Source of the DNA: Nemertoderma westbladi
Lineage: Eukaryota; Animalia; Xenacoelomorpha
NCBI GenBank assembly: GCA_032718475.1
Contig: JAUCBJ010003088.1
Span: 8,473 to 72,472 of the forward strand
DNA length: 64,000 bases
Direction: 5' to 3'
Numbering within the stretch: position 1 is the stretch's first letter; each line of letters starts with the position of its first letter. Shown here piece after piece: positions 1,301 to 64,000 of the stretch. The notes under the pieces are model-generated. The model did no database searches and had not been told where the DNA came from. It was given only the letters and a program-made list of their open reading frames with translations. The position numbers and the translations under genes were made by a program.

Positions 1301-4300
1301 TCACACAGCAGTTAGAACCAGTACTCCTATATGGAGTCCATCATACAGCAGTTAGAACCAGTACTCCTATATGGAGTCCCATCATACAGCAGTTAGAACC
1401 AGTACTCCTATATGGAGCATCAATCAGCAGATAGAACCAGGAACCAGTACTCCTATATGGATTCCATCATACAGCAGTTAGAACCAGTACTCCTATATGG
1501 AGTCCATCAATCAGAAGTTAGAACCAGTACTCCTATATGGATTCCATCAATCAGCAGTTAGAACCAGTACTCCTATATGGAGTCCATCATACAGCAGTTA
1601 GAACCAGTACACCTATATGGAGTCCATCATACAGCAGTTAGAACCAGTACTCCTATATGGAGTCCATCATACAGCAGATAGACCCAGTACTCCTATATGG
1701 AGTCCATCAATCATAAGTTAGAACCAGTACTCCTATATGGAGTCCATCATACAGCAGTTAGAATCAGTACTCCTCAATCAGCAGTTAGAACCAGTACTCC
1801 TTTATGGAGTCCATCAATCAGAAGTTAGAACCAGTACTCCTATATGGAGTCCATCAATCAGAAGTTAGAATCAGTACTCCTCAATCAGCAGTTAGAACCA
1901 GTACTCCTTTATGGAGTCCATCAATCAGAAGTTAGAACCAGTACTCCTATATGGAGTCCATCATACAGCAGTTAGAATCAGTACTCCTCAATCAGCAGTT
2001 AGAACCAGTACTCCTTTATGGAGTCCATCAATCAGAAGTTAGAACCAGTACTCCTATATGGAGTCCATCATACAGCAGTTAGAACCAGTACTCCTATATG
2101 GAGTCCATCATACAGCAGTTAGAACCAGTACTCCTATATGGAGTCCATCATACAGCAGTTAGACCCAGTACTCCTATATGGAGTCCATCAATCATAAGTT
2201 AGAACCAGTACTCCTATATGGAGTCCATCATACAGCAGTTAGAACCAGTACTCCTATATGGAGTCCATCATACAGCTGTTAGAACCAGTACTCCTATATG
2301 GAGTCCATCATACAGCAGTTAGAACCAGTACTCCTATATGGAGTCCATCATACAGCAGTTAGAACCAGTACTCCTATATGGAGTCCATCATACAGAAGTT
2401 AGAACTAGTACTCCTATATGGAGTCCATCATACAGCAGTTAGAACCAGTACTCCTATATGGAGTCTATCATACAGCAGTTAGAACCAGTACTCCTATATG
2501 GAGTCCATCAATCATAAGTTAGAACCAGTACTCCTATATGGAGTCCATCATACAGCAGTTAGAACCAGTACTCCTATATGGAGTCCATCATACAGCTGTT
2601 AGAACCAGTACTCCTATATGGAGTCCATCATACAGCAGTTAGAACCAGTACTCCTATATGGAGTCCATCATACAGCCTATATGGAGTCCATCAATCAGAA
2701 GTTAGAACCAGTACTCCTATATGGAGTCCATCAATCAGAATCAGAAGTTAGAACCAGTACTCCTATATGGAGTCCATCATACAGCAGTTAGAACCAGTAC
2801 TCCTATATGGAGTCCATCAATCATAAGTTAGAACCAGTACTCCTATATGGAGTCCATCATACAGCAGTTAGAACCAGTACTCATATATGGAGTCCATCAT
2901 ACAGAAGTTAGAACCAGTACTCCTATATGGAGTCCATCATACAAAAGTTAGAACCAGTACTCCTATATGGAGTCCATCATACAGCAGTTAGAATCAGTAC
3001 TCCTATATGGAGTCCATCATACAAAAGTTAGAACCAGTACTCCTATATGGAGTCCATCAATCATAAGTTAGAACCAGTACTCCTATATGGAGTCCATCAA
3101 TCATAAGTTAGAACCAGTACTCCTATATGGAGTCCATCATACAGCAGTTAGAACCAGTACTCCTATATGGAGTCCATCATACAGAAGTTAGAACCAGTAC
3201 TCCTATATGGAGTCCATCATACAGCAGTTAGAACCAGTACTCCTATATGGAGTCCATCAATCAGAAGTTAGAACCAGTACTCCTATATGGAGTCCATCAT
3301 ACAGCAGTTAGAACCAGTACTCCTATATGGAGTCCATCATACAGCTGTTAGAACCAGTACTCCTATATGGAGTCCATCATACAGCAGTTAGAACCAGTAC
3401 TCCTATATGGAGTCCATCATACAGCAGTTAGAACCAGTACTCCTATATGGAGTCCATCATACAGAAGTTAGAACTAGTACTCCTATATGGAGTCCATCAT
3501 ACAGCAGTTAGAACCAGTACTCCTATATGGAGTCTATCATACAGCAGTTAGAACCAGTACTCCTATATGGAGTCCATCATACAGCTGTTAGAACCAGTAC
3601 TCCTATATGGAGTCCATCATACAGCTGTTAGAACCAGTACTCCTATATGGAGTCCATCATACAGCAGTTAGAATCAGTACTCCTATATGGAGTCCATCAT
3701 ACAACTCCTATATGGAGTCCATCATACAGCAGTTAGAATCAGTACTCCTATATGGAGTCCATCATACAGCAGTTAGAACCAGTACTCCTATATGGAGTCC
3801 ATCATGCAGCAGTTAGAACCAGTACTCCTATATGGAGTCCATCATACAGCAGTTAGAACCAGTACTCCTATATGGAGTCCATCATGCAGCAGTTAGAACC
3901 AGTACTCCTATATGGAGTCCATCATACAGCAGTTAGAACCAGTACTCCTATATGGAGTCCATCATACAGCAGTTTGAATCAGTACTCCTATATGGAGTTC
4001 ATCAATCAGCAGTTAGAACCAGTACTCCTATATGGAGTCTATCAATCAGAAGTTAGAACCAGTACTCCTTTATGGAGTCCATCATACAGTAATTAGAACC
4101 AGTACTCCTCAATCAGCAGTTAGAACCAGTACTCCTTTATGGAGTCCATCAATCAGAAGTTAGAACCAGTACTCCTATATGGAGTCCATCATACAGCAGT
4201 TAGAACCAGTACTCCTATATGGAGTCCATCATACAGCAGTTAGAATCAGTACTCCTATATGGAGTTCATCAATCAGCAGTTAGAACCAGTACTCCTATAT

Positions 4301-7300
4301 GGAGTCTATCAATCAGAAGTTAGAACCAGTACTCCTTTATGGAGTCCATCATACAGTAATTAGAACCAGTACTCCTCAATCAGCAGTTAGAACCAGTACT
4401 CCTTTATGGAGTCCATCAATCAGAAGTTAGAACCAGTACTCCTATATGGAGTCCATCAATCAGAAGTTAGAACCAGTACTCCTATATGGAGTCCATCAAT
4501 CAGAAGTTAGAACCAGTACTCCTATATGGAGTCCATCATACAGCAGTTAGAACCAGTACTCCTATATGGAGTCCATCAATCAGAATCAGAAGTTAGAACC
4601 AGTACTCCTATATGGAGTCCATCATACAGCAGTTAGAACAAGTACTCCTATATGGAGTCCATCATACAGCAGTTAGAACCAGTACTCCTATATGGAGTCC
4701 ATCATACAGCAGTTAGAACCAGTACTCCTATATGGAGTCCCATCATACAGCAGTTAGAACCAGTACTCCTATATGGAGCATTAATCAGCAGATAGAACCA
4801 GGAACCAGTACTCCTATATGGATTCCATCATACAGAAGTTAGAACCAGTACTCCTATATGGAGTCCATCAATCAGAAGTTAGAACCAGTACTCCTATATG
4901 GATTCCATCAATCAGCAGTTAGAACCAGTACTCCTATATGGAGTCCATCATACAGCAGTTAGAACCAGTACTCCTATATGGAGTCCATCATACAGCAGTT
5001 AGAACCAGTACTCCTGTATGGAGTCCATCATACAGCAGTTAGACCCAGTACTCCTATATGGAGTCCATCAATCATAAGTTAGAACCAGTACTCCTATATG
5101 GAGTCCATCATACAGCAGTTAGAACCAGTACTCCTATATGGAGTCCATCATACAGCAGTTAGAACCAGTACTCCTATATGGAGTCCATCATACAGCAGTT
5201 AGACCCAGTACTCCTATATGGAGTCCATCAATCATAAGTTAGAACCAGTACTCCTATATGGAGTCCATCATACAGCTGTTAGAACCAGTACTCCTATATG
5301 GAGTCCATCATACAGCAGTTAGAACCAGTACTCCTATATGGAGTCCATCATACAGCAGTTAGAACCAGTACTCCTATATGGAGTCCATCATACAGAAGTT
5401 AGAACTAGTACTCCTATATGGAGTCCATCATACAGCAGTTAGAACCAGTACTCCTATATGGAGTCTATCATACAGCAGTTAGAACCAGTACTCCTATATG
5501 GAGTCCATCAATCATAAGTTAGAACCAGTACTCCTATATGGAGTCCATCATACAGCAGTTAGAACCAGTACTCCTATATGGAGTCCATCATACAGCTGTT
5601 AGAACCAGTACTCCTATATGGAGTCCATCATACAGCTGTTAGAACCAGTACTCCTATATGGAGTCCATCATACAGCAGTTAGAACCAGTACTCCTTTATG
5701 GAGTCCATCATACAGTAATTAGAACCAGTACTCCTCAATCAGCAGTTAGAACCAGTACTCCTTTATGGAGTCCATCAATCAGAAGTTAGAACCAGTACTC
5801 CTATATGGAGTCCATCAATCAGAAGTTAGAACCAGTACTCCTATATGGAGTCCATCAATCAGAAGTTAGAACCAGTACTCCTATATGGAGTCCATCATAC
5901 AGCAGTTAGAACCAGTACTCCTATATGGAGTCCATCAATCAGCAGATAGAACCAGGAACCAGTATTCCTATATGGATTCCATCATACACCAGTTAGAATC
6001 AGTACTCCTATATGGAGTCCATCATACAACTCCTATATGGAGTCCATCATACAGCAGTTAGAATCAGTACTCCTATATGGAGTCCATCATACAGCAGTTA
6101 GAACCAGTACTCCTATATGGAGTCCATCATGCAGCAGTTAGAACCAGTACTCCTATATGGAGTCCATCATACAGCAGTTAGAACCAGTACTCCTATATGG
6201 AGTCCATCATACAGCAGTTAGAATCAGTACTCCTATATGGAGTTCATCAATCAGCAGTTAGAACCAGTACTCCTATATGGAGTCTATCAATCAGAAGTTA
6301 GAACCAGTACTCCTTTATGGAGTCCATCATACAGTAATTAGAACCAGTACTCCTCAATCAGCAGTTAGAACCAGTACTCCTCAATCAGCAGTTAGAACCA
6401 GTACTCCTTTATGGAGTCCATCAATCAGAAGTTAGAACCAGTACTCCTATATGGAGTCCATCATACAGCAGTTAGAACCAGTACTCCTATATGGAGTCCA
6501 TCATACAGCAGTTAGAATCAGTACTCCTATATGGAGTTCATCAATCAGCAGTTAGAACCAGTACTCCTATATGGAGTCTATCAATCAGAAGTTAGAACCA
6601 GTACTCCTTTATGGAGTCCATCATACAGTAATTAGAACCAGTACTCCTCAATCAGCAGTTAGAACCAGTACTCCTTTATGGAGTCCATCAATCAGAAGTT
6701 AGAACCAGTACTCCTATATGGAGTCCATCAATCAGAAGTTAGAACCAGTACTCCTATATGGAGTCCATCAATCAGAAGTTAGAACCAGTACTCCTATATG
6801 GAGTCCATCATACAGCAGTTAGAACCAGTACTCCTATATGGAGTCCATCATACAGCAGTTAGAATCAGTACTCCTATATGGAGTTCATCAATCAGCAGTT
6901 AGAACCAGTACTCCTATATGGAGTCTATCAATCAGAAGTTAGAACCAGTACTCCTTTATGGAGTCCATCATACAGTAATTAGAACCAGTACTCCTCAATC
7001 AGCAGTTAGAACCAGTACTCCTTTATGGAGTCCATCAATCAGAAGTTAGAACCAGTACTCCTATATGGAGTCCATCAATCAGAAGTTAGAACCAGTACTC
7101 CTATATGGAGTCCATCAATCAGAAGTTAGAACCAGTACTCCTATATGGAGTCCATCATACAGCAGTTAGAACCAGTACTCCTATATGGAGTCCATCAATC
7201 AGAATCAGAAGTTAGAACCAGTACTCCTATATGGAGTCCATCATACAGCAGTTAGAACAAGTACTCCTATATGGAGTCCATCATACAGCAGTTAGAACCA

Positions 7301-10300
7301 GTACTCCTATATGGAGTCCATCATACAGCAGTTAGAACCAGTACTCCTATATGGAGTCCCATCATACAGCAGTTAGAACCAGTACTCCTATATGGAGCAT
7401 TAATCAGCAGATAGAACCAGGAACCAGTACTCCTATATGGATTCCATCATACAGAAGTTAGAACCAGTACTCCTATATGGAGTCCATCAATCAGAAGTTA
7501 GAACCAGTACTCCTATATGGATTCCATCAATCAGCAGTTAGAACCAGTACTCCTATATGGAGTCCATCATACAGCAGTTAGAACCAGTACTCCTATATGG
7601 AGTCCATCATACAGCAGTTAGAACCAGTACTCCTGTATGGAGTCCATCATACAGCAGTTAGACCCAGTACTCCTATATGGAGTCCATCAATCATAAGTTA
7701 GAACCAGTACTCCTATATGGAGTCCATCATACAGCAGTTAGAACCAGTACTCCTATATGGAGTCCATCATACAGCAGTTAGAACCAGTACTCCTATATGG
7801 AGTCCATCATACAGCAGTTAGACCCAGTACTCCTATATGGAGTCCATCAATCATAAGTTAGAACCAGTACTCCTATATGGAGTCCATCATACAGCTGTTA
7901 GAACCAGTACTCCTATATGGAGTCCATCATACAGCAGTTAGAACCAGTACTCCTATATGGAGTCCATCATACAGCAGTTAGAACCAGTACTCCTATATGG
8001 AGTCCATCATACAGAAGTTAGAACTAGTACTCCTATATGGAGTCCATCATACAGCAGTTAGAACCAGTACTCCTATATGGAGTCTATCATACAGCAGTTA
8101 GAACCAGTACTCCTATATGGAGTCCATCAATCATAAGTTAGAACCAGTACTCCTATATGGAGTCCATCATACAGCAGTTAGAACCAGTACTCCTATATGG
8201 AGTCCATCATACAGCTGTTAGAACCAGTACTCCTATATGGAGTCCATCATACAGCTGTTAGAACCAGTACTCCTATATGGAGTCCATCATACAGCAGTTA
8301 GAACCAGTACTCCTTTATGGAGTCCATCATACAGTAATTAGAACCAGTACTCCTCAATCAGCAGTTAGAACCAGTACTCCTTTATGGAGTCCATCAATCA
8401 GAAGTTAGAACCAGTACTCCTATATGGAGTCCATCAATCAGAAGTTAGAACCAGTACTCCTATATGGAGTCCATCAATCAGAAGTTAGAACCAGTACTCC
8501 TATATGGAGTCCATCATACAGCAGTTAGAACCAGTACTCCTATATGGAGTCCATCAATCAGCAGATAGAACCAGGAACCAGTATTCCTATATGGATTCCA
8601 TCATACACCAGTTAGAATCAGTACTCCTATATGGAGTCCATCATACAACTCCTATATGGAGTCCATCATACAGCAGTTAGAATCAGTACTCCTATATGGA
8701 GTCCATCATACAGCAGTTAGAACCAGTACTCCTATATGGAGTCCATCATGCAGCAGTTAGAACCAGTACTCCTATATGGAGTCCATCATACAGCAGTTAG
8801 AACCAGTACTCCTATATGGAGTCCATCATACAGCAGTTAGAATCAGTACTCCTATATGGAGTTCATCAATCAGCAGTTAGAACCAGTACTCCTATATGGA
8901 GTCTATCAATCAGAAGTTAGAACCAGTACTCCTTTATGGAGTCCATCATACAGTAATTAGAACCAGTACTCCTCAATCAGCAGTTAGAACCAGTACTCCT
9001 CAATCAGCAGTTAGAACCAGTACTCCTTTATGGAGTCCATCAATCAGAAGTTAGAACCAGTACTCCTATATGGAGTCCATCATACAGCAGTTAGAACCAG
9101 TACTCCTATATGGAGTCCATCATACAGCAGTTAGAATCAGTACTCCTATATGGAGTTCATCAATCATCAGTTAGAACCAGTACTCCTATATGGAGTCTAT
9201 CAATCAGAAGTTAGAACCAGTACTCCTTTATGGAGTCCATCATACAGTAATTAGAACCAGTACTCCTCAATCAGCAGTTAGAACCAGTACTCCTTTATGG
9301 AGTCCATCAATCAGAAGTTAGAACCAGTACTCCTATATGGAGTCCATCAATCAGAAGTTAGAACCAGTACTCCTATATGGAGTCCATCAATCAGAAGTTA
9401 GAACCAGTACTCCTATATGGAGTCCATCATACAGCAGTTAGAACCAGTACTCCTATATGGAGTCCATCAATCAGAATCAGAAGTTAGAACCAGTACTCCT
9501 ATATGGAGTCCATCATACAGCAGTTAGAACAAGTACTCCTATATGGAGTCCATCATACAGCAGTTAGAACCAGTACTCCTATATGGAGTCCATCATACAG
9601 CAGTTAGAACCAGTACTCCTATATGGAGTCCCATCATACAGCAGTTAGAACCAGTACTCCTATATGGAGCATCAATCAGCAGATAGAACCAGGAACCAGT
9701 ACTCCTATATGGATTCCATCATACAGCAGTTAGAACCAGTACTCCTATATGGAGTCCATCAATCAGAAGTTAGAACCAGTACTCCTATATGGATTCCATC
9801 AATCAGCAGTTAGAACCAGTACTCCTATATGGAGTCCATCATACAGCAGTTAGAACCAGTACTCCTATATGGAGTCCATCATACAGCAGTTAGAACCAGT
9901 ACTCCTATATGGAGTCCATCATACAGCAGTTAGACCCAGTACTCCTATATGGAGTCCATCAATCATAAGTTAGAACCAGTACTCCTATATGGAGTCCATC
10001 ATACAGCAGTTAGAACCAGTACTCCTATATGGAGTCCATCATACAGCAGTTAGAACCAGTACTCCTATATGGAGTCCATCATACAGCAGTTAGACCCAGT
10101 ACTCCTATATGGAGTCCATCAATCATAAGTTAGAACCAGTACTCCTATATGGAGTCCATCATACAGCTGTTAGAACCAGTACTCCTATATGGAGTCCATC
10201 ATACAGCAGTTAGAACCAGTACTCCTATATGGAGTCCATCATACAGCAGTTAGAACCAGTACTCCTATATGGAGTCCATCATACAGAAGTTAGAACTAGT

Positions 10301-13300
10301 ACTCCTATATGGAGTCCATCATACAGCAGTTAGAACCAGTACTCCTATATGGAGTCTATCATACAGCAGTTAGAACCAGTACTCCTATATGGAGTCCATC
10401 AATCATAAGTTAGAACCAGTACTCCTATATGGAGTCCATCATACAGCAGTTAGAACCAGTACTCCTATATGGAGTCCATCATACAGCTGTTAGAACCAGT
10501 ACTCCTATATGGAGTCCATCATACAGCTGTTAGAACCAGTACTCCTATATGGAGTCCATCATACAGCAGTTAGAACCAGTACTCCTATATGGAGCATCAA
10601 TCAGCAGATAGAACCAGGAACCAGTATTCCTATATGGATTCCATCATACAGCAGTTAGAATCAGTACTCCTATATGGAGTCCATCATACAACTCCTATAT
10701 GGAGTCCATCATACAGCAGTTAGAATCAGTACTCCTATATGGAGTCCATCATACAGCAGTTAGAACCAGTACTCCTATATGGAGTCCACCATGCAGCAGT
10801 TAGAACCAGTACTCCTATATGGAGTCCATCATACAGCAGTTAGAACCAGTACTCCTATATGGAGTCCATCATACAGCAGTTAGAATCAGTACTCCTATAT
10901 GGAGTTCATCAATCAGCAGTTAGAACCAGTACTCCTATATGGAGTCTATCAATCAGAAGTTAGAACCAGTACTCCTTTATGGAGTCCATCATACAGTAAT
11001 TAGAACCAGTACTCCTCAATCAGCAGTTAGAACCAGTACTCCTTTATGGAGTCCATCAATCAGAAGTTAGAACCAGTACTCCTATATGGAGTCCATCATA
11101 CAGCAGTTAGAACCAGTACTCCTATATGGAGTCCATCATACAGCAGTTAGAATCAGTACTCCTATATGGAGTTCATCAATCAGCAGTTAGAACCAGTACT
11201 CCTATATGGAGTCTATCAATCAGAAGTTAGAACCAGTACTCCTTTATGGAGTCCATCATACAGTAATTAGAACCAGTACTCCTCAATCAGCAGTTAGAAC
11301 CAGTACTCCTTTATGGAGTCCATCAATCAGAAGTTAGAACCAGTACTCCTATATGGAGTCCATCAATCAGAAGTTAGAACCAGTACTCCTATATGGAGTC
11401 CATCAATCAGAAGTTAGAACCAGTACTCCTATATGGAGTCCATCATACAGCAGTTAGAACCAGTACTCCTATATGGAGTCCATCAATCAGAATCAGAAGT
11501 TAGAACCAGTACTCCTCAATCAGCAGTTAGAACCAGTACTCCTTTATGGAGTCCATCAATCAGAAGTTAGAACCAGTACTCCTATATGGAGTCCATCATA
11601 CAGCAGTTAGAACCAGTACTCCTATATGGAGTCCATCATACAGCAGTTAGAACCAGTACTCCTATATGGAGTCCATCATACAGCAGTTAGAACCAGTACT
11701 CCTATATGGAGTCCATCATACAGAAGTTAGAACCAGTACTCCTATATGGAGTCCATCATACAGCAGTTAGAACCAGTACTCCTATATGGAGTCCATCATA
11801 CAGCAGTTAGAACCAGTACTCCTATATGGAGTCCATCAATCAGAAGTTAGAACCAGTACTCCTATATGGAGTCCATCATACAGCAGTTAGAACCAGTACT
11901 CCTATATGGAGTCCATCATACAGCTGTTAGAACCAGTACTCCTATATGGAGTCCATCATACAGCTGTTAGAACCAGTACTCCTATATGGAGTCCATCATA
12001 CAGCAGTTAGAACCAGTACTCCTATATGGAGCATCAATCAGCAGATAGAACCAGGAACCAGTATTCCTATATGGATTCCATCATACAGCAGTTAGAATCA
12101 GTACTCCTATATGGAGTCCATCATACAACTCCTATATGGAGTCCATCATACAGCAGTTAGAATCAGTACTCCTATATGGAGTCCATCATACAGCAGTTAG
12201 AACCAGTACTCCTATATGGAGTCCATCATGCAGCAGTTAGAACCAGTACTCCTATATGGAGTCCATCATACAGCAGTTAGAATCAGTACTCCTATATGGA
12301 GTTCATCAATCAGCAGTTAGAACCAGTACTCCTATATGGAGTCTATCAATCAGAAGTTAGAACCAGTACTCCTTTATGGAGTCCATCATACAGTAATTAG
12401 AACCAGTACTCCTCAATCAGCAGTTAGAACCAGTACTCCTTTATGGAGTCCATCAATCAGAAGTTAGAACCAGTACTCCTATATGGAGTCCATCATACAG
12501 CAGTTAGAACCAGTACTCCTATATGGAGTCCATCATACAGCAGTTAGAATCAGTACTCCTATATGGAGTTCATCAATCAGCAGTTAGAACCAGTACTCCT
12601 ATATGGAGTCTATCAATCAGAAGTTAGAACCAGTACTCCTTTATGGAGTCCATCATACAGTAATTAGAACCAGTACTCCTCAATCAGCAGTTAGAACCAG
12701 TACTCCTTTATGGAGTCCATTAATCAGAAGTTAGAACCAGTACTCCTATATGGAGTCCATCAATCATAAGTTAGAACCAGTACTCCTATATGGAGTCCAT
12801 CATACAGCAGTTAGAACCACTACTCATATATGGAGTCCATCATACAGAAGTTAGAACCAGTACTCCTATATGGAGTCCATCATACAAAAGTTAGAACCAG
12901 TACTCCTATATGGAGTCCATCATACAGCAGTTAGAATCAGTACTCCTATATGGAGTCCATCATACAAAAGTTAGAACCAGTACTCCTATATGGAGTCCAT
13001 CAATCATAAGTTAGAACCAGTACTCCTATATGGAGTCCATCAATCATAAGTTAGAACCAGTACTCCTATATGGAGTCCATCATACAGCAGTTAGAACCAG
13101 TACTCCTATATGGAGTCCATCATACAGAAGTTAGAACCAGTACTCCTATATGGAGTCCATCATACAGCAGTTAGAACCAGTACTCCTATATGGAGTCCAT
13201 CAATCAGAAGTTAGAACCAGTACTCCTATATGGAGTCCATCATACAGCAGTTAGAACCAGTACTCCTATATGGAGTCCATCATACAGCTGTTAGAACCAG

Positions 13301-16300
13301 TACTCCTATATGGAGTCCATCATACAGCAGTTAGAACCAGTACTCCTATATGGAGTCCATCATACAGCAGTTAGAACCAGTACTCCTATATGGAGTCCAT
13401 CATACAGAAGTTAGAACTAGTACTCCTATATGGAGTCCATCATACAGCAGTTAGAACCAGTACTCCTATATGGAGTCTATCATACAGCAGTTAGAACCAG
13501 TACTCCTATATGGAGTCCATCAATCATAAGTTAGAACCAGTACTCCTATATGGAGTCCATCATACAGCAGTTAGAACCAGTACTCCTATATGGAGTCCAT
13601 CATACAGCTGTTAGAACCAGTACTCCTATATGGAGTCCATCATACAGCAGTTAGAACCAGTACTCCTATATGGAGTCCATCATACAGCAGTTAGAACCAG
13701 TACTCCTATATGGAGTCCATCATACAGAAGTTAGAACTAGTACTCCTATATGGAGTCCATCATACAGCAGTTAGAACCAGTACTCCTATATGGAGTCTAT
13801 CATACAGCAGTTAGAACCAGTACTCCTATATGGAGTCCATCAATCATAAGTTAGAACCAGTACTCCTATAAGAAGTTAGAACTAGTACTCCTATATGGAG
13901 TCCATCATACAGCAGTTAGAACCAGTACTCCTATATGGAGTCCATCATACAGCCTATATGGAGTCCATCAATCAGAAGTTAGAACCAGTACTCCTATATG
14001 GAGTCCATCAATCAGAATCAGAAGTTAGAACCAGTACTCCTATATGGAGTCCATCATACAGCAGTTAGAACCAGTACTCCTATATGGAGTCCATCAATCA
14101 TAAGTTAGAACCAGTACTCCTATATGGAGTCCATCATACAGCAGTTAGAACCAGTACTCATATATGGAGTCCATCATACAGAAGTTAGAACCAGTACTCC
14201 TATATGGAGTCCATCATACAAAAGTTAGAACCAGTACTCCTATATGGAGTCCATCATACAGCAGTTAGAATCAGTACTCCTATATGGAGTCCATCATACA
14301 AAAGTTAGAACCAGTACTCCTATATGGAGTCCATCAATCATAAGTTAGAACCAGTACTCCTATATGGAGTCCATCAATCATAAGTTAGAACCAGTACTCC
14401 TATATGGAGTCCATCATACAGCAGTTAGAACCAGTACTCCTATATGGAGTCCATCATACAGAAGTTAGAACCAGTACTCCTATATGGAGTCCATCATACA
14501 GCAGTTAGAACCAGTACTCCTATATGGAGTCCATCAATCAGAAGTTAGAACCAGTACTCCTATATGGAGTCCATCATACAGCAGTTAGAACCAGTACTCC
14601 TATATGGAGTCCATCATACAGCTGTTAGAACCAGTACTCCTATATGGAGTCCATCATACAGCAGTTAGAACCAGTACTCCTATATGGAGTCCATCATACA
14701 GCAGTTAGAACCAGTACTCCTATATGGAGTCCATCATACAGAAGTTAGAACTAGTACTCCTATATGGAGTCCATCATACAGCAGTTAGAACCAGTACTCC
14801 TATATGGAGTCTATCATACAGCAGTTAGAACCAGTACTCCTATATGGAGTCCATCATACAGCTGTTAGAACCAGTACTCCTATATGGAGTCCATCATACA
14901 GCTGTTAGAACCAGTACTCCTATATGGAGTCCATCATACAGCAGTTAGAATCAGTACTCCTATATGGAGTCCATCATACAACTCCTATATGGAGTCCATC
15001 ATACAGCAGTTAGAATCAGTACTCCTATATGGAGTCCATCATACAGCAGTTAGAACCAGTACTCCTATATGGAGTCCATCATGCAGCAGTTAGAACCAGT
15101 ACTCCTATATGGAGTCCATCATACAGCAGTTAGAACCAGTACTCCTATATGGAGTCCATCATGCAGCAGTTAGAACCAGTACTCCTATATGGAGTCCATC
15201 ATACAGCAGTTAGAACCAGTACTCCTATATGGAGTCCATCATACAGCAGTTAGAATCAGTACTCCTATATGGAGTTCATCAATCAGCAGTTAGAACCAGT
15301 ACTCCTATATGGAGTCTATCAATCAGAAGTTAGAACCAGTACTCCTTTATGGAGTCCATCATACAGTAATTAGAACCAGTACTCCTCAATCAGCAGTTAG
15401 AACCAGTACTCCTTTATGGAGTCCATCAATCAGAAGTTAGAACCAGTACTCCTATATGGAGTCCATCATACAGCAGTTAGAACCAGTACTCCTATATGGA
15501 GTCCATCATACAGCAGTTAGAATCAGTACTCCTATATGGAGTTCATCAATCAGCAGTTAGAACCAGTATTCCTATATGGAGTCTATCAATCAGAAGTTAG
15601 AACCAGTACTCCTTTATGGAGTCCATCATACAGTAATTAGAACCAGTACTCCTCAATCAGCAGTTAGAACCAGTACTCATTTATGGAGTCCATCAATCAG
15701 AAGTTAGAACCAGTACTCCTATATGGAGTCCATCAATCAGAAGTTAGAACCAGTACTCCTATATGGAGTCCATCAATCAGAAGTTAGAACCAGTACTCCT
15801 ATATGGAGTCCATCATACAGCAGTTAGAACCAGTACTCCTATATGGAGTCCATCAATCAGAATCAGAAGTTAGAACCAGTACTCCTATATGGAGTCCATC
15901 ATACAGCAGTTAGAACAAGTACTCCTATATGGAGTCCATCATACAGCAGTTAGAACCAGTACTCCTATATGGAGTCCATCATACAGCAGTTAGAACCAGT
16001 ACTCCTATATGGAGTCCCATCATACAGCAGTTAGAACCAGTACTCCTATATGGAGCATTAATCAGCAGATAGAACCAGGAACCAGTACTCCTATATGGAT
16101 TCCATCATACAGAAGTTAGAACCAGTACTCCTATATGGAGTCCATCAATCAGAAGTTAGAACCAGTACTCCTATATGGATTCCATCAATCAGCAGTTAGA
16201 ACCAGTACTCCTATATGGAGTCCATCATACAGCAGTTAGAACCAGTACTCCTATATGGAGTCCATCATACAGCAGTTAGAACCAGTACTCCTATATGGAG

Positions 16301-33989: not shown

Positions 33990-34087
33990 AATCAGATGGG
34001 CGGAAAAGCCAACCAACCACCAAGGTTAAGGCTGAATCACCAGCCGATCGCCTTAATGGTTGGAAAGCCCACTTTGAAAAGCTCCTT

Positions 34088-35789: not shown

Positions 35790-35831
35790 AAATGCAGCTG
35801 CAATGCAGCATGCCGATCCTAGTAGTAGTAG
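35790..35831 (+). other. Short 3' UTR and (TAG)n tail of the retrotransposon
   Basis: After the TAA stop: AATGCAGCTGCAATGCAGCATGCCGATCC, then TAGTAGTAGTAG (35820-35831). The last TAG is shared with the target TAGAACC. Confidence 0.85.
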
Positions 35832-35907
35832 AACCAGTACTCCTATATGGAGTCCATCATACAGCAGTTAGAACCAGTACTCCTATATGGAGTCCATCAT
35901 ACAGCAG
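35829..35907 (+). repeat. Probable right target-site duplication (about 79 bp)
   Basis: Identical to 33911-33989 and followed by the diagnostic TTAGACCC variant. Confidence 0.65.
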
Positions 35908-51060: not shown

Positions 51061-54000
51061 AGTTAGAACCAGTACTCCTATATGGAGTCCATCATACAGC
51101 AGTTAGAACCAATACTCCTATATGGAGTCCATCAATCAGAAGTTAGAACCAGTACTCCTATATGGAGTCCATCAATCAGAAGTTAGAACCTGTACTCCTA
51201 TATGGAGTCCATCATACAGCAGTTAGAACCAGTACTCCTTCCTATATGGAGTCCACCATACAGCAGTTAGAACCAGTACTCCTATATGGAGCCCATCATA
51301 CAGCAGTTAGAACCAGTACTCCTATATGGAGTCCATCATACAGCAGTTAGAACCAGTACTCCTGGAGTCCATCATACAGCAGTTAGAACCAGTACTCCTA
51401 TATGGAGTCCATTAATCAGAAGTTAGAACCAGTACTCCTATATGGAGTCAATCAATCAGAAGTAAGAACCAGTACTCCTATATGGAGTCCATCATTCAGA
51501 AGTAAGAACCAGTACTCCTTCCTATATGGAGTCCATCATATAGCAGTTAGAACCAGTACTCCTATATGGAGTCTATCAATCAGCAGTTAGAACCAGTACT
51601 CCTATATGGAGTCCATCATACAGCAGTTAGAACCAGTGCTCCTATATGGAGTCCATCATACAGCAGTTAGAACCAGTACTCCTATATGGAGTCCATCAAT
51701 CAGAAGTAAGAACCAGTATTCCTATATGGAGTCTATCATACAGCAGTTAGAACCAGTGCTCCTATATGGAGTCCATCATACAGCAGTTAGAACCAGTACT
51801 CCTATATGGAGTCCATCATACAGCAGTTAGAACCAGTACTCCTATATGGAGTCCATCATACAGCAGTTAGAACCAGTACTCCTATATGGAGTCCATCAGA
51901 CAGCAGTTAGAACCAGTACTCCTATATGGAGTCCATCATACAGCAGTTAGAACCAGTACTCCTATATGGAGTCCATCATACAGCAGTTAGAACCAGTACT
52001 CCTATATGGAGTCCATCAGACAGCAGTTAGAACCAGTACTCCTATATGGAGTCCATCATACAGCAGTTAGAACCAGTACTCCTATATGGAGTCCATCATA
52101 CAGCAGTTAGAACCAGTACTCCTATATGGAGTCCATCATACAGCTGTTAGAACCAGTACTCCTATATGGAGACCATCATACAGCAGTTAGAACCAGTACT
52201 CCTATATGGAGCATCAATCAGAAGTTAGAACCAGTACTCCTATATGGAGTATCAATCAGAAGTTAGAACCAGTACTCCTATATGGAGTCCATCATACAGC
52301 AGTTAGAACAAGTACTCCTATATGGAGTCCATCATACAGCAGTTAGAACCAGTACTCCTTCCTATATGGAGTCAGTCCATCAATCATAAGTTAGAACCAG
52401 TACTCCTATATGGAGTCCATCATACAGCAGTTAGAACCAGTACTCCTTCCTATATGGATTCCATCATACAGCAGTTAGAACCAGTACTCCTATATGGAGT
52501 CCATCATACAGCAGTTAGAACCAGTACTCCTATATGGAGTCCATCAATCAGAAGTTAGAACCAGTACTCCTATATGGAATCAGTCCATCAATCATAAGTT
52601 AGAACCAGTACTCCTATATGGAGTCAATCATACAGCAGTTAGAACCAGTACTCCTTCCTATATGGAGTCCATCATACAGCAGATAGAACCAGTACTCCTA
52701 TATGGAGTCCATCATACAGCAGTCAGAACCAGTACTTCTATATGGAGACCATCATACAGCAGTTAGAACCAGTACTCCTATATGGAGTCCATCAATCAGA
52801 AGTTAGAACCAGTACTCCTTTATGGAGGAGTCCATCAATCAGAAGTTAGAACCAGTACTCCTATATGGATTCCATCAATCAGAAGTTAGAACCAGTACTC
52901 CTATATGGAGTCCATCAATCAGAAGTTAGAACTAGTACTCCTTTATGGAGTCCATCAATTAGAAGTTAGAACCAGTACTCCTATATGGAGTCCATCATAC
53001 AGCAGTTAGAATCAGTACTCCTATATGGAGTCCATCATACAAAAGTTAGAACCAGTACTCCTATATGGAGTCCATCATACAGCAGTTAGAACTCCTATAT
53101 GGAGTCCATCATACAGCAGTTAGAATCAGTACTCCTATATGGAGTCTATCATACAGCAGTTAGAACCAGTACTCCTATATGGAGTCCATCATACAGCAGT
53201 TAGAACCAGTACTCCTATATGGAGTCCATCATACAGCAGTTAGAATCAGTACTCCTATATGGAGTTCATCAATCAGCAGTTAGAACCAGTACTCCACCAA
53301 TCAGAAGTTAGAACCAGTACTCCTTTATGGAGTCTATCATACAGTAGTTAGAACCAGTACTCCTCAATCAGCAGTTAGAACCAGTACTCCTTTATGGAGT
53401 CCATCAATCAGAAGTTAGAACCAGTACTCCTATATGGAGTCCATCATGCAGCAGTTAGAACCAGTACTCCTATATGGAGTCCATCATACAGCAGTTAGAA
53501 CCCGTACTCCTATATGGAGTCCATCATACAGCAGTTAGAACCAGTACTCCTATATGGAGTCCATCATACAGAAGTTAGAACCAGTACTCCTATATGGAGT
53601 CCATCAATCATAAGTTAGAACCAGTACTCCTATATGGAGTCCATCAATCAGAATCAGAAGTTAGAACCAGTACTCCAATATGGAGTCCATCATACAGCAG
53701 TTAGAACCAGTACTCCTATATGGAGTCCATCATACAGCAGTTAGAACCAGTACTCCTATATGGAGCATCAATCAGCAGATAGAACCAGGAACCAGTACTC
53801 CTATATGGATTCCATCATACAGCAGTTAGAACCAGTACTCCTATATGGAGTCCATCATACAGCAGTTAGAACCAGTACTCCTATATGGAGTCCATCATAC
53901 AGCAGTTAGAACCAGTACTCCTATATGGAGTCCATCAATCAGAAGTTAGAACCAGTACTCCTATATGGAGTCCATCATACAGCAGTTAGAATCAGTACTC

Positions 54001-57000
54001 CTATATGGAGTCCATCATACAAAAGTTAGAACCAGTACTCCTATATGGAGTCCATCATACAGCAGTTAGAACTCCTATATGGAGTCCATCATACAGCAGT
54101 TAGAATCAGTACTCCTATATGGAGTCCATCATACAGCAGTTAGAACCAGTACTCCTATATGGAGTCCATCATGCAGCAGTTAGAACCAGTACTCCTATAT
54201 GGAGTCCATCATACAGCAGTTAGAACCAGTACTCCTATATGGAGTCCATCATACAGCAGTTAGAATCAGTACTCCTATATGGAGTTCATCAATCAGAAGT
54301 TAGAACCAGTACTCCTATATGGAGTCTATCAATCAGAAGTTAGAACCAGTACTCCTTTATGAAGTCCATCATACAGTAATTAGAACCAGTACTCCTCAAT
54401 CAGCAGTTAGAACCAGTACTCCTTTATGGAGTCCATCAATCAGAAGTTAGAACCAGTACTCCTATATGGAGTCCATCATACAGCAGTTAGAACTAGTACT
54501 CCTATATGGACTCCATTATACAGCAGTTAGAATCAGTACTCCTATATGGAGTTCATCAATCAGCAGTTAGAACCAGTACTCCTGTATGGAGTCTATCAAT
54601 CAGAAGTTAGAACCAGTACTCCTTTATGGAGTCCATCATACAGTAATTAGAACCAGTACTCCTCAATCAGCAGTTAGAACCAGTACTCCTTTATGGAGTC
54701 CATCAATCAGAAGTTAGAACCAGTACTCCTATATGGAGTCCATCAATCAGAAGTTAGAACCAGTACTCCTATATGGAGTCCATCAATCAGAATCAGAAGT
54801 TAGAACCAGTACTCCTATATGGAGTCCATCATACAGCAGTTAGAACAAGTACTCCTATATGGAGTCCATCATACAGCAGTTAGAACCAGTACTCCTATAT
54901 GGAGTCCATCATACAGCAGTTAGAACCAGTACTCCTATATGGAGTCTATCAATCAGAAGTTAGAACCAGTACTCCTTTATGAAGTCCATCATACAGTAAT
55001 TAGAACCAGTACTCCTCAATCAGCAGTTAGAACCAGTACTCCTTTATGGAGTCCATCAATCAGAAGTTAGAACCAGTACTCCTATATGGAGTCCATCATA
55101 CAGCAGTTAGAACTAGTACTCCTATATGGACTCCATTATACAGCAGTTAGAATCAGTACTCCTATATGGAGTTCATCAATCAGCAGTTAGAACCAGTACT
55201 CCTGTATGGAGTCTATCAATCAGAAGTTAGAACCAGTACTCCTTTATGGAGTCCATCATACAGTAATTAGAACCAGTACTCCTCAATCAGCAGTTAGAAC
55301 CAGTACTCCTTTATGGAGTCCATCAATCAGAAGTTAGAACCAGTACTCCTATATGGAGTCCATCAATCAGAAGTTAGAACCAGTACTCCTATATGGAGTC
55401 CATCAATCAGAATCAGAAGTTAGAACCAGTACTCCTATATGGAGTCCATCATACAGCAGTTAGAACAAGTACTCCTATATGGAGTCCATCATACAGCAGT
55501 TAGAACCAGTACTCCTATATGGAGTCCATCATACAGCAGTTAGAACCAGTACTCCTATATGGAGTCCATCATACAGCAGTTAGAACCAGTACTCCTATAT
55601 GGAGCATCAATCAGCAGATAGAACCAGGAACCAGTACTCCTATATGGATTCCATCATACAGCAGTTAGAACCAGTACTCCTATATGGAGTCCATCAATCA
55701 GAAGTTAGAACCAGTACTCCTATATGGATTCCATCAATCAGCAGTTAGAACCAGTACTCCTATATGGAGTCCATCATACAGCAGTTAGAACCAGTACTCC
55801 TATATGGAGTGCATCATACGGCAGTTAGAACCAGTACTCCTATATGGAGTCCATCATACAGCAGTTAGAACCAGTACTCCTATATGGAGTCCATCATACA
55901 GCAGTTAGAACCAGTAATCCTATATGGAGTCCATCATACGGCAGTTAGAACCAGTACTCCTATATGGAGTCCATCATACAGCAGTTAGAACTCCTATATG
56001 GAGTCCATCATACAGCAGTTAGAACCAGTACTCCTATATGGAGTCCATCATACAGCAGTTAGACCCAGTACACCTATATGGAGTCCATCAATCATAAGTT
56101 AGAACCAGTACTCCTATATGGAGTCCATCATACAGCAGTTAGAACCAGTACTCCTATATGGAGTCCATCATACAGCAGTTAGAACCAGTACTCCTATATT
56201 GAGTCCATCATACAGCAGTTAGAACCAGTACTCCTATATGGAGTCCATCATACAGCAGTTAGAATCAGTACTCCTATATGGAGTCCATCATACAGCAGTT
56301 AGAACCAGTACTCCTATATGGAGTCCATCATACAGCAGTTAGAACCAGTACTCCTATATGGAGTCCATCATACAGCAGTTAGAACCAGTACTCCTATATG
56401 GAGTCCATCATACAGCCTATATGGAGTCCATCAATCAGAAGTTAGAACCAGTACTCCTATATGGATTCCATCAATCAGCAGTTAGAACCAGTACTCCTAT
56501 ATGGAGTCCATCATACAGCAGTTAGAACCAGTACTCCTATATGGAGTCCATCATACAGCAGTTAGAACCAGTACTCCTATATGGAGTCCATCAATCAGAA
56601 GTTAGAACCAGTACTCCTATATGGAGTCCATCATACAGCAGTTAGAATCAGTACTCCTATATGGAGTCCATCATACAAAAGTTAGAACCAGTACTCCTAT
56701 ATGGAGTCCATCATACAGCAGTTAGAACTCCTATATGGAGTCCATCATACAGCAGTTAGAATCAGTACTCCTATATGGAGTCCATCATACAGCAGTTAGA
56801 ACCAGTACTCCTATATGGAGTCCATCATGCAGCAGTTAGAACCAGTACTCCTATATGGAGTCCATCGTACAGCAGTTAGAACCAGTACTCCTATATGGAG
56901 TCCATCATACAGCAGTTAGAATCAGTACTCCTATATGGAGTTCATCAATCAGAAGTTAGAACCAGTACTCCTATATGGAGTCTATCAATCAGAAGTTAGA

Positions 57001-60000
57001 ACCAGTACTCCTTTATGAAGTCCATCATACAGTAATTAGAACCAGTACTCCTCAATCAGCAGTTAGAACCAGTACTCCTTTATGGAGTCCATCAATCAGA
57101 AGTTAGAACCAGTACTCCTATATGGAGTCCATCATACAGCAGTTAGAACCAGTACTCCTATATGGACTCCATTATACAGCAGTTAGAATCAGTACTCCTA
57201 TATGGAGTTCATCAATCAGCAGTTAGAACCAGTACTCCTGTATGGAGTCTATCAATCAGAAGTTAGAACCAGTACTCCTTTATGGAGTCCATCATACAGT
57301 AATTAGAACCAGTACTCCTCAATCAGCAGTTAGAACCAGTACTCCTTTATGGAGTCCATCAATCAGAAGTTAGAACCAGTACTCCTATATGGAGTCCATC
57401 AATCAGAAGTTAGAACCAGTACTCCTATATGGAGTCCATCAATCAGAATCAGAAGTTAGAACCAGTACTCCTATATGGAGTCCATCATACAGCAGTTAGA
57501 ACAAGTACTCCTATATGGAGTCCATCATACAGCAGTTAGAACCAGTACTCCTATATGGAGTCCATCATACAGCAGTTAGAACCAGTACTCCTATATGGAG
57601 TCCATCATACAGCAGTTAGAACCAGTACTCCTATATGGAGCATCAATCAGCAGATAGAACCAGGAACCAGTACTCCTATATGGATTCCATCATACAGCAG
57701 TTAGAACCAGTACTCCTATATGGAGTCCATCAATCAGAAGTTAGAACCAGTACTCCTATATGGATTCCATCAATCAGCAGTTAGAACCAGTACTCCTATA
57801 TGGAGTCCATCATACAGCAGTTAGAACCAGTACTCCTATATGGAGTGCATCATACGGCAGTTAGAACCAGTACTCCTATATGGAGTCCATCATACAGCAG
57901 TTAGAACCAGTACTCCTATATGGAGTCCATCATACAGCAGTTAGAACCAGTACTCCTATATGGAGTCCATCATACGGCAGTTAGAACCAGTACTCCTATA
58001 TGGAGTCCATCATACAGCAGTTAGAACTCCTATATGGAGTCCATCATACAGCAGTTAGAACCAGTACTCCTATATGGAGTCCATCATACAGCAGTTAGAC
58101 CCAGTACACCTATATGGAGTCCATCAATCATAAGTTAGAACCAGTACTCCTATATAGAGTCCATCATACAGCAGTTAGAACCAGTACTCCTATATGGAGT
58201 CCATCATACAGCAGTTAGAACCAGTACTCCTATATTGAGTCCATCATACAGCAGTTAGAACCAGTACTCCTATATGGAGTCCATCATACAGCAGTTAGAA
58301 TCAGTACTCCTATATGGAGTCCATCATACAGCAGTTAGAACCAGTACTCCTATATGGAGTCCATCATACAGCAGTTAGAACCAGTACTCCTATATGGAGT
58401 TCATCATACAGCAGTTAGAACCAGTACTCCTATATGGAGTCCATCATACAGCCTATATGGAGTCCATCAATCAGAAGTTAGAACCAGTACTCCTATATGG
58501 ATTCCATCAATCAGCAGTTAGAACCAGTACTCCTATATGGAGTCCATCATACAGCAGTTAGAACCAGTACACCTATATGGAGTCCATCATACAGCAGTTA
58601 GAACCAGTACTCCTATATGGAGTCCATCATACGGCAGTTAGAACCAGTACTCCTATATGGAGTCCATCATACAGCAGTTAGAACTCCTATATGGAGTCCA
58701 TCATACAGCAGTTAGAACCAGTACTCCTATATGGAGTCCATCATACAGCAGTTAGACCCAGTACACCTATATGGAGTCCATCAATCATAAGTTAGAACCA
58801 GTACTCCTATATGGAGTCCATCATACAGCAGTTAGAACCAGTACTCCTATATGGAGTCCATCATACAGCAGTTAGAACCAGTACTCCTATATGGAGTCCA
58901 TCATACAGCAGTTATAACCAGTACTCCTATATGGAGTCCATCATACAGCAGTTAGAATCAGTACTCCTATATGGAGTCCATCATACAGCAGTTAGAACCA
59001 GTACTCCTATATGGAGTCCATCATACAGCAGTTAGAACCAGTACTCCTATATGGAGTCCATCATACAGCAGTTAGAACCAGTACTCCTATATGGAGTCCA
59101 TCATACAGCCTATATGGAGTCCATCAATCAGAAGTTAGAACCAGTAGTCCTATATGGAGTCCATCAATCAGAATCAGAAGTTAGAACCAGTACTCCTATA
59201 TGGAGTCCATCATACAGCAGTTAGAACCAGTACTCCTATATGGAGTCCATCAATCATAAGTTAGAACCAGTACTCCTATATGGAGTCCATCATACAGCAG
59301 TTAGAACCAGTACTCATATATGGAGTCCATCATACAGAAGTTAGAACCAGTACTCCTATATGGAGTCCATCATACAAAAGTTAGAACCAGTACTCCTATA
59401 TGGAGTCCATCATACAGCAGTTAGAATCAGTACTCCTATATGGAGTCCATCATACAAAAGTTAGAACCAGTACTCTTATATGGAGTCCATTAATCATAAG
59501 TTAGAACCAGTACTCCTATATGGAGTCCATCAATCATAAGTTAGAACCAGTACTCCTATATGGAGTCCATCATACAGCAGTTAGAACCAGTACTCCTATA
59601 TGGAGTCCATCATACAGAAGTTAGAACCAGTACTCCTATATGGAGTCCATCATACAGCAGTTAGAACCAGTACTCCTATATGGAGTCCATCAATCAGAAG
59701 TTAGAACCAGTACTCCTATATGGAGTCCATCATACAGCAGTTAGAACCAGTACTCCTATATGGAGTCCATCATACAGCTGTTAGAACCAGTACTCCTATA
59801 TGGAGTCCATCATACAGCAGTTAGAACCAGTACTCCTATATGGAGTTCATCATACAGCAGTTAGAACCAGTACTCCTATATGGAGTCCATCATACAGAAG
59901 TTAGAACTAGTACTCCTATATGGAGTCCATCATACAGCAGTTAGAACCAGTACTCCTATATGGAGTCTATCATACAGCAGTTAGAACCAGTACTCCTATA

Positions 60001-63000
60001 TGGAGTCTATCAATCAGAAGTTAGAACCAGTACTCCTTTATGAAGTCCATCATACAGTAATTAGAACCAGTACTCCTCAATCAGCAGTTAGAACCAGTAC
60101 TCCTTTATGGAGTCCATCAATCAGAAGTTAGAACCAGTACTCCTATATGGAGTCCATCATACAGCAGTTAGAACCAGTACTCCTATATGGACTCCATTAT
60201 ACAGCAGTTAGAATCAGTACTCCTATATGGAGTTCATCAATCAGCAGTTAGAACCAGTACTCCTGTATGGAGTCTATCAATCAGAAGTTAGAACCAGTAC
60301 TCCTTTATGGAGTCCATCATACAGTAATTAGAACCAGTACTCCTCAATCAGCAGTTAGAACCAGTACTCCTTTATGGAGTCCATCAATCAGAAGTTAGAA
60401 CCAGTACTCCTATATGGAGTCCATCAATCAGAAGTTAGAACCAGTACTCCTATATGGAGTCCATCAATCAGAATCAGAAGTTAGAACCAGTACTCCTATA
60501 TGGAGTCCATCATACAGCAGTTAGAACAAGTACTCCTATATGGAGTCCATCATACAGCAGTTAGAACCAGTACTCCTATATGGAGTCCATCATACAGCAG
60601 TTAGAACCAGTACTCTTATATGGAGTCCATCATACAGCAGTTAGAACCAGTACTCCTATATGGAGCATCAATCAGCAGATAGAACCAGGAACCAGTACTC
60701 CTATATGGATTCCATCATACAGCAGTTAGAACCAGTACTCCTATATGGAGTCCATCAATCAGAAGTTAGAACCAGTACTCCTATATGGATTCCATCAATC
60801 AGCAGTTAGAACCAGTACTCCTATATGGAGTCCATCATACAGCAGTTAGAACCAGTACTCCTATATGGAGTGCATCATACGGCAGTTAGAACCAATACTC
60901 CTATATGGAGTCCATCATACAGCAGTTAGAACCAGTAATCCTATATGGAGTCCATCATACGGCAGTTAGAACCAGTACTCCTATATGGAGTCCATCATAC
61001 AGCAGTTAGAACTCCTATATGGAGTCCATCATACAGCAGTTAGAACCAGTACTCCTATATGGAGTCCATCATACAGCAGTTAGACCCAGTACACCTATAT
61101 GGAGTCCATCAATCATAAGTTAGAACCAGTACTCCTATATGGAGTCCATCATACAGCAGTTAGAACCAGTACTCCTATATGGAGTCCATCATACAGCAGT
61201 TAGAACCAGTACTCCTATATTGAGTCCATCATACAGCAGTTAGAACCAGTACTCCTATATGGAGTCCATCATACAGCAGTTAGAATCAGTACTCCTATAT
61301 GGAGTCCATCATACAGCAGTTAGAACCAGTACTCCTATATGGAGTCCATCATACAGCAGTTAGAACCAGTAATCCTATATGGAGTCCATCATACGGCAGT
61401 TAGAACCAGTACTCCTATATGGAGTCCATCATACAGCAGTTAGAACTCCTATATGGAGTCCATCATACAGCAGTTAGAACCAGTACTCCTATATGGAGTC
61501 CATCATACAGCAGTTAGACCCAGTACACCTATATGGAGTCCATCAATCATAAGTTAGAACCAGTACTCCTATATGGAGTCCATCATACAGCAGTTAGAAC
61601 CAGTACTCTTATATGGAGTCCATCATACAGCAGTTAGAACCAGTACTCCTATATTGAGTCCATCATACAGCAGTTAGAACCAGTACTCCTATATGGAGTC
61701 CATCATACAGCAGTTAGAATCAGTACTCCTATATGGAGTCCATCATACAGCAGTTAGAACCAGTACTCCTATATGGAGTCCATCATACAGCAGTTAGAAC
61801 CAGTACTCCTATATGGAGTCCATCATACAGCAGTTAGAACCAGTACTCCTATATGGAGTCCATCATACAGCCTATATGGAGTCCATCAATCAGAAGTTAG
61901 AACCAGGACTCCTATATGGATTCCATGAATCAGCAGTTAGAACCAGTACTCCTATATGGAGTCCATCATACAGCAGTTAGAACCAGTACTCCTATATGGA
62001 GTCCATCATACAGCAGTTAGAACCAGTACTCCTATATGGAGTCCATCAATCAGAAGTTAGAACCAGTACTCCTATATGGAGTCCATCATACAGCAGTTAG
62101 AATCAGTACTCCTATATGGAGTCCATCATACAAAAGTTAGAACCAGTACTCCTATATGGAGTCCATCATACAGCAGTTAGAACTCCTATATGGAGTCCAT
62201 CATACAGCAGTTAGAATCAGTACTCCTATATGGAGTCCATCATACAGCAGTTAGAACCAGTACTCCTATATGGAGTCCATCATGCAGCAGTTAGAACCAG
62301 TACTCCTATATGGAGTCCATCGTACAGCAGTTAGAACCAGTACTCCTATATGGAGTCCATCATACAGCAGTTAGAATCAGTACTCCTATATGGAGTTCAT
62401 CAATCAGAAGTTAGAACCAGTACTCCTATATGGAGTCTATCAATCAGAAGTTAGAACCAGTACTCCTTTATGAAGTCCATCATACAGTAATTAGAACCAG
62501 TACTCCTCAATCAGCAGTTAGAACCAGTACTCCTTTATGGAGTCCATCAATCAGAAGTTAGAACCAGTACTCCTATATGGAGTCCATCATACAGCAGTTA
62601 GAACCAGTACTCCTATATGGACTCCATTATACAGCAGTTAGAATCAGTACTCCTATATGGAGTTCATCAATCAGCAGTTAGAACCAGTACTCCTGTATGG
62701 AGTCTATCAATCAGAAGTTAGAACCAGTACTCCTTTATGGAGTCCATCATACAGTAATTAGAACCAGTACTCCTCAATCAGCAGTTAGAACCAGTACTCC
62801 TTTATGGAGTCCATCAATCAGAAGTTAGAACCAGTACTCCTATATGGAGTCCATCAATCAGAAGTTAGAACCAGTACTCCTATATGGAGTCCATCAATCA
62901 GAATCAGAAGTTAGAACCAGTACTCCTATATGGAGTCCATCATACAGCAGTTAGAACAAGTACTCCTATATGGAGTCCATCATACAGCAGTTAGAACCAG

Positions 63001-64000
63001 TACTCCTATATGGAGTCCATCATACAGCAGTTAGAACCAGTACTCCTATATGGAGTCCATCATACAGCAGTTAGAACCAGTACTCCTATATGGAGCATCA
63101 ATCAGCAGATAGAACCAGGAACCAGTACTCCTATATGGATTCCATCATACAGCAGTTAGAACCAGTACTCCTATATGGAGTCCATCAATCAGAAGTTAGA
63201 ACCAGTACTCCTATATGGATTCCATCAATCAGCAGTTAGAACCAGTACTCCTATATGGAGTCCATCATACAGCAGTTAGAACCAGTACTCCTATATGGAG
63301 TCCATCATACAGCAGTTAGAACCAGTACTCCTATATGGAGTCCATCATACAGCAGTTAGAACCAGTACTCCTATATGGAGTCCATCATACGGCAGTTAGA
63401 ACCAGTACTCCTATATGGAGTCCATCATACAGCAGTTAGAACTCCTATATGGAGTCCATCATACAGCAGTTAGAACCAGTACTCCTATATGGAGTCCATC
63501 ATACAGCAGTTAGACCCAGTACACCTATATGGAGTCCATCAATCATAAGTTAGAACCAGTACTCCTATATGGAGTCCATCATACAGCAGTTAGAACCAGT
63601 ACTCCTATATGGAGTCCATCATACAGCAGTTAGAACCAGTACTCCTATATTGAGTCCATCATACAGCAGTTAGAACCAGTACTCCTATATGGAGTCCATC
63701 ATACAGCAGTTAGAATCAGTACTCCTATATGGAGTCCATCATACAGCAGTTAGAACCAGTACTCCTATATGGAGTCCATCATACAGCAGTTAGAACCAGT
63801 ACTCCTATATGGAGTCCATCATACAGCAGTTAGAACCAGTACTCCTATATGGAGTCCATCATACAGCCTATATGGAGTCCATCAATCAGAAGTTAGAACC
63901 AGTACTCCTATATGGATTCCATCAATCAGCAGTTAGAACCAGTACTCCTATATGGAGTCCATCATACAGCAGTTAGAACCAGTACACCTATATGGAGTCC

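Follow-up and report, generated by a model that had tools for sequence, protein, structure and literature searches.

A 40-bp satellite probably derived from LINE ORF2 and interrupted by a broken LINE of the same lineage in Nemertoderma westbladi

Several LINEs are found inside tandem arrays, and for R2, Utopia and a centromere-enriched retroelement of Drosophila, repeat targeting or satellite/centromere enrichment has been shown. LINEs can also give rise to tandem arrays. Satellites derived from LINE ORF2 include, in the excerpted text of a review, PROsat of Phodopus (from L1 ORF2), chicken HinfI (from CR1 ORF2 and 3′ UTR) and seal Pvc 20 (from L1 ORF2) (PMC9659126). Minisatellites derived from transposable elements (TEs) are described, in the relevant section of a second review, as products of slippage or unequal crossing-over between flanking repeats of 5–10 bp (PMC6947457); that review, too, includes ORF2-derived LINE satellites. 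The term ‘RTE’ has no occurrences in these two reviews. LINEs of the RTE clade are typically a single ORF of ~1,000 aa with an APE endonuclease and a reverse transcriptase (RT), and the target-site duplications of plant RTEs measure 8–20 bp (PMC5850137, in excerpt). Overlaps of one to several bases between tail and target are reported as general for RTE, CR1 and L2 elements in the available part of a further study (PMC6007223).

Here, we describe a locus of Nemertoderma westbladi in which a satellite and a LINE of its source lineage lie together, within 64,000 nucleotides of contig JAUCBJ010003088.1 (the whole stretch of DNA analysed, hereafter the window). We read the array as a true satellite of LINE origin into which a broken member of the same lineage probably inserted later; LINE-ORF-derived satellites as such are already known. 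R2, Utopia and the Drosophila element resemble it in being LINEs inside a tandem array, but for those elements specificity or enrichment has been shown, whereas here there is one insertion. Furthermore, the sequence-specific ones among such repeat-targeting elements that came up in our search use a restriction-like endonuclease, while the relatives of the present LINE appear to be of the APE type, judging by a weak Exo_endo_phos match in one of them (P0143). PROsat, HinfI and Pvc 20, to the extent that the review excerpt (PMC9659126) covers them, likewise have a tandem unit that resembles the coding sequence of a LINE (by 88% for PROsat; here at 32 of 37 alignment columns); unlike in those cases, the slice here makes up nearly the whole 40-bp unit, the source appears RTE-like, and the array contains a LINE copy from its source lineage. 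With the TE-derived minisatellites, as portrayed in the section of PMC6947457 mentioned above, the locus has in common a short unit from inside a retroelement and DNA-level exchange, but the 37-bp slice in the LINE copy is flanked by only a 2-base repeat and the array is satellite-sized (>60 kb). The source of this satellite can be read to the codon and the source-lineage insertion is preserved with the details of its junctions; the locus offers a way to study the origin of satellites and the marking of homogenisation domains by an insertion. At the level of search results, we found in the open-access literature neither a case of a satellite that harbours an insertion from the LINE lineage it came from nor a description of a feedback loop between a retrotransposon and the repeat it spawned, which is what the locus would represent if the enrichment or silencing discussed below were true. 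In three contig collections (metagenome, viral and prokaryote), a motif covering unit and LINE had no exact match.

The features of the window are as follows.

1301..33989, + strand: left satellite block of 40-bp monomers in higher-order repeats of 2–3 kb, recently homogenised, with exact duplicates.
33911..33989, + strand: possible target-site duplication of 79 bp, left copy; it is one base shorter than two monomers, and its assignment within a tandem array is ambiguous.
33990–35828, + strand: interrupting element including the 5′ junction bases; the sole ORF of at least 150 aa in the window lies within it.
33990..33997, + strand: 5′ junction; its first 7–8 bases probably do not belong to the LINE but represent filler with a monomer variant as template.
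33998..35828, + strand: 5′-truncated RTE-like LINE with linker end, RT domain, C-terminal region, short 3′ UTR and (TAG)n tail, without the endonuclease part.
34088..34239, + strand: perfect 76-bp tandem duplication in the LINE, frameshifting and without microhomology at its ends.
34506..34508, + strand: premature stop codon in ORF2.
35361..35397, + strand: ORF2 segment homologous to the monomer (aa 285–297 of the ORF at 34509; motif VLLYG).
35820..35831, + strand: 3′ junction, (TAG)4, the last TAG being common to tail and monomer (3-base overlap).
35829..64000, + strand: right satellite block with other higher-order domains, among them a 37/38-bp variant domain; it runs off the window.

The array totals 60,861 bp, or ~1,521 monomer lengths (~1,520 co-oriented monomers), with a single interruption. 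When it was cut at a monomer anchor, all 1,517 anchors lay on the + strand (0 on the − strand), with the LINE also on the + strand, which bears out a sequence-only reading of this DNA that had counted roughly 1,500 co-oriented copies around a co-oriented element. The unit length is 40 bp in 1,111 of 1,515 units. There are 186 distinct units, with a mean identity to the commonest unit of 95.7%, and units are closer to one another than to the inserted LINE. Variant units follow one another in the same order across blocks of 2–3 kb, and exact duplicates of 2,410, 2,012 and 1,806 bp occur within the array. The long head-to-tail arrangement with higher-order structure that is a feature of TE-derived satellites is therefore present, and the block-wise order of variants and the exact duplicates imply amplification at the DNA level, as expected from unequal exchange or similar block copying.

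The higher-order domains differ along the array. Units of 37/38 bp make up 61–75% of all units at 44–52 kb, and the corresponding domain (~43.5–51 kb) has almost no 100-mers in common with the rest of the array. At the LINE (33990–36000), the domains change sharply: 2-kb bins at 24–34 kb have 75–90% of their 100-mers in common among themselves, while bins at 36–42 kb have at most 22% in common with any left bin. Homogenisation may be blocked at this boundary, or the assembly may have joined two stretches there through a unique anchor.

The interrupting LINE is a broken copy: it is 5′-truncated and carries both the premature stop codon and the frameshifting 76-bp duplication. The two copies of the latter show zero differences, which suggests that the duplication is young. 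Its ORF matches RVT_1 (E 6.6e-22, aa 1–241), followed by a sub-threshold match to DUF6451 at aa 261–293. The (TAG)n tail begins ~30 bases past the stop codon of the LINE, giving the 3′ end with short tandem repeats and without poly(A) that is a feature of RTEs; most of the 43 relative loci whose 3′ ends were examined end in short repeats as well. The nearest database relatives are 53–57% identical, and two long relatives are single proteins of 1,049 and 1,099 aa with 50–55% identity to the LINE copy. Among the relatives, P0143 has RVT_1 and an Exo_endo_phos match below the curated cut-off, and P0136 has RVT_1 without an Exo_endo_phos match. Named matches are hypothetical proteins of amphioxus and an eel, and the only solved relatives of the RT are L1 ORF2p and R2. 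The architecture of the LINE fits the excerpted description of RTEs in PMC5850137 and, together with motifs that point to this clade, suggests the label RTE-like; no named RTE reference was among the matches.

The commonest unit aligns with the LINE at 35362–35397 with 32 of 37 columns identical (3 substitutions and two single-base indels; score 45). This score was reached in 0 of 5,000 monomer shuffles (maximum 35) and 0 of 3,000 element shuffles (maximum 32), and a Gumbel fit puts it at about 1e-6. Against the homologous segments of relatives, the unit scores at most 30, with a median of 14 (51 loci covering the segment out of 80, the 80 including some repeat sightings of one insertion). The shuffles and the relatives’ scores rule out chance similarity of monomer and LINE, and the relatives’ ceiling of 30 also rules out a generic similarity via the conserved VLLYG motif. 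In one frame, the unit reads EPVLLYG, a motif conserved over 120 homologs from other sources; because the unit still encodes this family motif, the direction would be from LINE to satellite. Sequence comparison strongly supports a LINE origin of the monomer, from the lineage of the LINE copy. An RT-derived monomer had been proposed from the sequence alone, of which the ORF2 origin stands; the slice itself, however, lies downstream of the Pfam RT core. The unit corresponds to the slice plus a duplicated triplet, with one base added and one lost, and the order of events would run from slice to unit.

The inserted LINE had likewise been called parent-like. At position 288, the unit has a Glu codon (E288, as in 110 of 120 homologs), while the LINE copy has Val. 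The codon for P296 is common to unit and LINE copy, with Pro outside the five commonest residues at that position, and LYG[SA]P occurs in 0 of 120 homologs. Words with the three substitution alleles of the LINE, or with its extra G, are present in the LINE only and in no monomer; a word without the extra T of the unit occurs at 2 array places. The longest word common to array and LINE is 12 bases (11 for the main unit, 12 for a minor variant). These fixed differences, together with the Glu codon, point to an earlier or sister member of the RTE-like lineage as the likely source of the satellite, rather than the inserted copy. By the same alleles, the inserted LINE is a relative of the parent and not the parent itself, so that ‘parent-like’ holds for its lineage but not for this 5′-truncated, broken copy.

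At its 3′ end, the insertion resembles the RTE signature as given in the available part of PMC6007223, with a microsatellite-like tail, a short overlap of tail and target, and a target that starts with T; it differs in having no T-stretch ~10 bases upstream and no short target-site duplication, with possibly a 79-bp one instead. At the 5′ junction, the word formed by the first bases is found in 27 array places, matching a monomer variant, and the two residues that these bases encode are nearly absent at those positions in 56 homolog matches; the 7–8 bases are likely templated filler. The marker variants on either side of the LINE lie five monomers apart, whereas the spacing is three at each of the 11 other such places before 43 kb (a count that leaves out 7 markers beyond 55 kb, which lie in another block order), and the junction offset is −1 base modulo 40. 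This spacing may reflect a 79-bp target-site duplication or a later local gain. The short duplication of 8–20 bp expected of RTEs is absent, and the offset is ambiguous in a tandem array. Among 41 relative loci searched for long target-site duplications, 4 had a match of at least 12 bases, with only that of L003 (12 bp) plausible and with most contigs lacking a 5′ flank; our literature search found no long RTE target-site duplications.

The internal homology lies at neither junction: ~430 bp separate its end from the 3′ junction, and reverse transcription continued for 1.4 kb beyond it. A tail match of at least 3 bases is possible at 5 of 40 monomer positions on the + strand and at 4 of 40 on the − strand, so both the phase and the orientation of the insertion are unsurprising from one event, and the co-orientation of LINE and array amounts to about a coin toss. 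The suggestion that the element homes to the array by RNA–DNA complementarity gains no support from the internal segment and has, for the TAG tail, only a 3-base overlap of the kind that the excerpt of PMC6007223 treats as general RTE behaviour. Of the 43 relative loci that have a 3′ flank, at least 3 (L012, L014 and L017) continue directly into tandem repeats. When 9 flanking repeat units from 8 loci were compared with their own elements, no match was found, and 12 of 300 shuffles equalled the best alignment; since relatives adjoin unrelated tandem repeats, they land in tandem arrays without kinship. At L014, an unrelated 30-bp tandem repeat is present on both sides of the relative (1–1394 and 3349–3653).

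On balance, we think it probable that the 40-bp unit came from an ORF2 slice of an earlier or sister RTE-like member and was amplified at the DNA level, and that the LINE is an ordinary, later insertion. The array would have been founded by one duplication event, in which either slippage or a slip of the RT was at work; small indels would have followed, and unequal exchange would have amplified the array. The (UAG)n tail may then have primed reverse transcription on the TAG of a unit, in a target-primed insertion. The two would occur together because the family is abundant, giving rise to satellites and also inserting into them. This account does not require that the array act on the LINE in any way, and the null model of the sequence-only reading, a single chance insertion into a large array, fits best. 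Several findings nevertheless sit uneasily with this account. The only insertion in these 61 kb belongs to the same lineage as the source of the array, which would be a coincidence, and its position is 7 bases into the homologous stretch, where the sequence most resembles the tail. A 79-bp duplication would be far longer than the 8–20 bp of plant RTEs or the 12 bp of L003. The LINE sits at a sharp higher-order domain boundary, which the account itself leaves unexplained, and an antisense guide still pairs at 17 of 20 positions.

Kinship and target site together could also mean that the family seeded its own landing pad, a reading we consider unlikely. Here, the family would prefer the satellite, with the endonuclease or the (UAG)n tail favouring the YAG-YAG-TAG found once per 40 bp, or with array chromatin as the attraction. 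The insertion exactly at the TAG of a unit with a 3-base overlap, by a LINE of the same lineage as the source of the satellite, is what such a preference would produce, and a correlation between the tail repeats of RTEs and the base with which the target site starts is reported (PMC6007223, in its available part). In a relative with a long (TAG)n tail (L030, 1624–1710), the next few bases resemble the target site in the window, although this makes two cases only. Set against this are the single insertion in 61 kb, the 5 of 40 positions that give the overlap by chance, the absence of the internal homology from both junctions, and the relatives that adjoin unrelated repeats and unique DNA. An extended form, a self-built safe harbour in which the satellite is the preferred target via the TAG of each 40-bp unit and antisense array RNA restrains the LINE mRNA, seems to us equally doubtful.

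Host defence, in which antisense transcripts of the array are turned into piRNAs/siRNAs that silence the family and the two-base change of the LINE at the Glu codon is an escape, is less probable still. The initial proposal was aimed at a conserved, hard-to-mutate segment; the segment ranks only 56 among 415 windows in conservation, and the LINE copy departs from its family there. Pairing is marginal. The best 27-nt antisense guide pairs at 17 of 20 positions (Watson–Crick, g2–g21), and the best gap-free match of unit and LINE is 19 of 22 bases; over this span, a single mismatch in 22 would be left for a family member that has kept the usual Glu codon. PIWI slicing is reported, in the excerpt of PMC10338343, to take at least 15 contiguous pairs, to tolerate mismatches in longer duplexes and to be hindered by indels. 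The tolerance would help a defence of this type, while the longest contiguous match of 11 bases (12 in a minor variant) falls short of the reported 15 and two indels flank the matching core. Moreover, the domain at 43.5–51 kb (~7 kb) has lost 3 core bases and has a mean score of 30 versus 41, which argues against selection to keep the match. The LINE segment shows no excess of escape-like changes (2/10 vs 27/193, p 0.64). Silencing through such pairing is possible but unsupported, and the analysis gave the proposal no positive support.

We give slightly less weight again to a partly secondary match, in which gene conversion by the surrounding satellite, or recombination with it, has altered the LINE segment and the rare codons overstate the kinship. 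The LINE copy and the unit do have codons that are mostly missing from the seven closest relatives of the LINE; conversion by the array would, however, import the alleles and frameshifting indels of the unit, whereas the LINE copy has kept its reading frame here and shows five differences from the unit, and by the counts just given deviations are not enriched in its segment. Least probable of all is that the RT made the array by reiterative, telomerase-like copying of an internal template: the blunt, perfect 76-bp tandem duplication near the 5′ end of the LINE indicates that short slices of the LINE do get duplicated, but all units have common differences from the LINE, one kilobase block repeats the order of variants seen in another, which points to DNA block copying, and the left edge joins AT-rich, non-LINE unique DNA without an ORF2 remnant. 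Units identical to one RNA template and free of block-wise variant inheritance, as telomerase-like synthesis would leave them, are not what the array contains. The fixed differences and the exact kilobase duplicates thus refute the RT-templated array that had been suggested for the bulk of the units. A weak form, in which an RT slip made the first few units, falls outside this estimate; it is possible, compatible with the account of a LINE-derived satellite and an ordinary later insertion, and here not distinguishable from slippage.

A search for special RNA structure gave small hairpins only, with z −0.22 for the LINE segment and z −1.17 for the LINE 3′ end, where a small hairpin lies just before the tail. 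By eye, over the last 40 bases, a short inverted repeat is found directly before the tail in L004, L005, L009, L012–L016, L018, L022 and L032 too. The RNA folding of the two dimer strands had z −0.85 and −2.41, the latter reached by 3 of 200 shuffles in one of four tests.

Positions 1–1300, to the left of the array, are AT-rich unique non-array DNA. A tblastn search of 1–1310 with four long relatives returned no ORF2 remnant, which ruled out that the array was born inside a LINE at its left edge, and 1–1700 had 0 Rfam matches. In the adjoining flank (~1245–1300), a TTAA lies a few bases upstream of the array start, and the sequence before it, which we take to resemble the end of a DNA transposon, comes without a matching inverted repeat. 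Farther out, at 1–138, lies an unrelated 31-bp minisatellite of 4.5 copies, cut by the start of the window.
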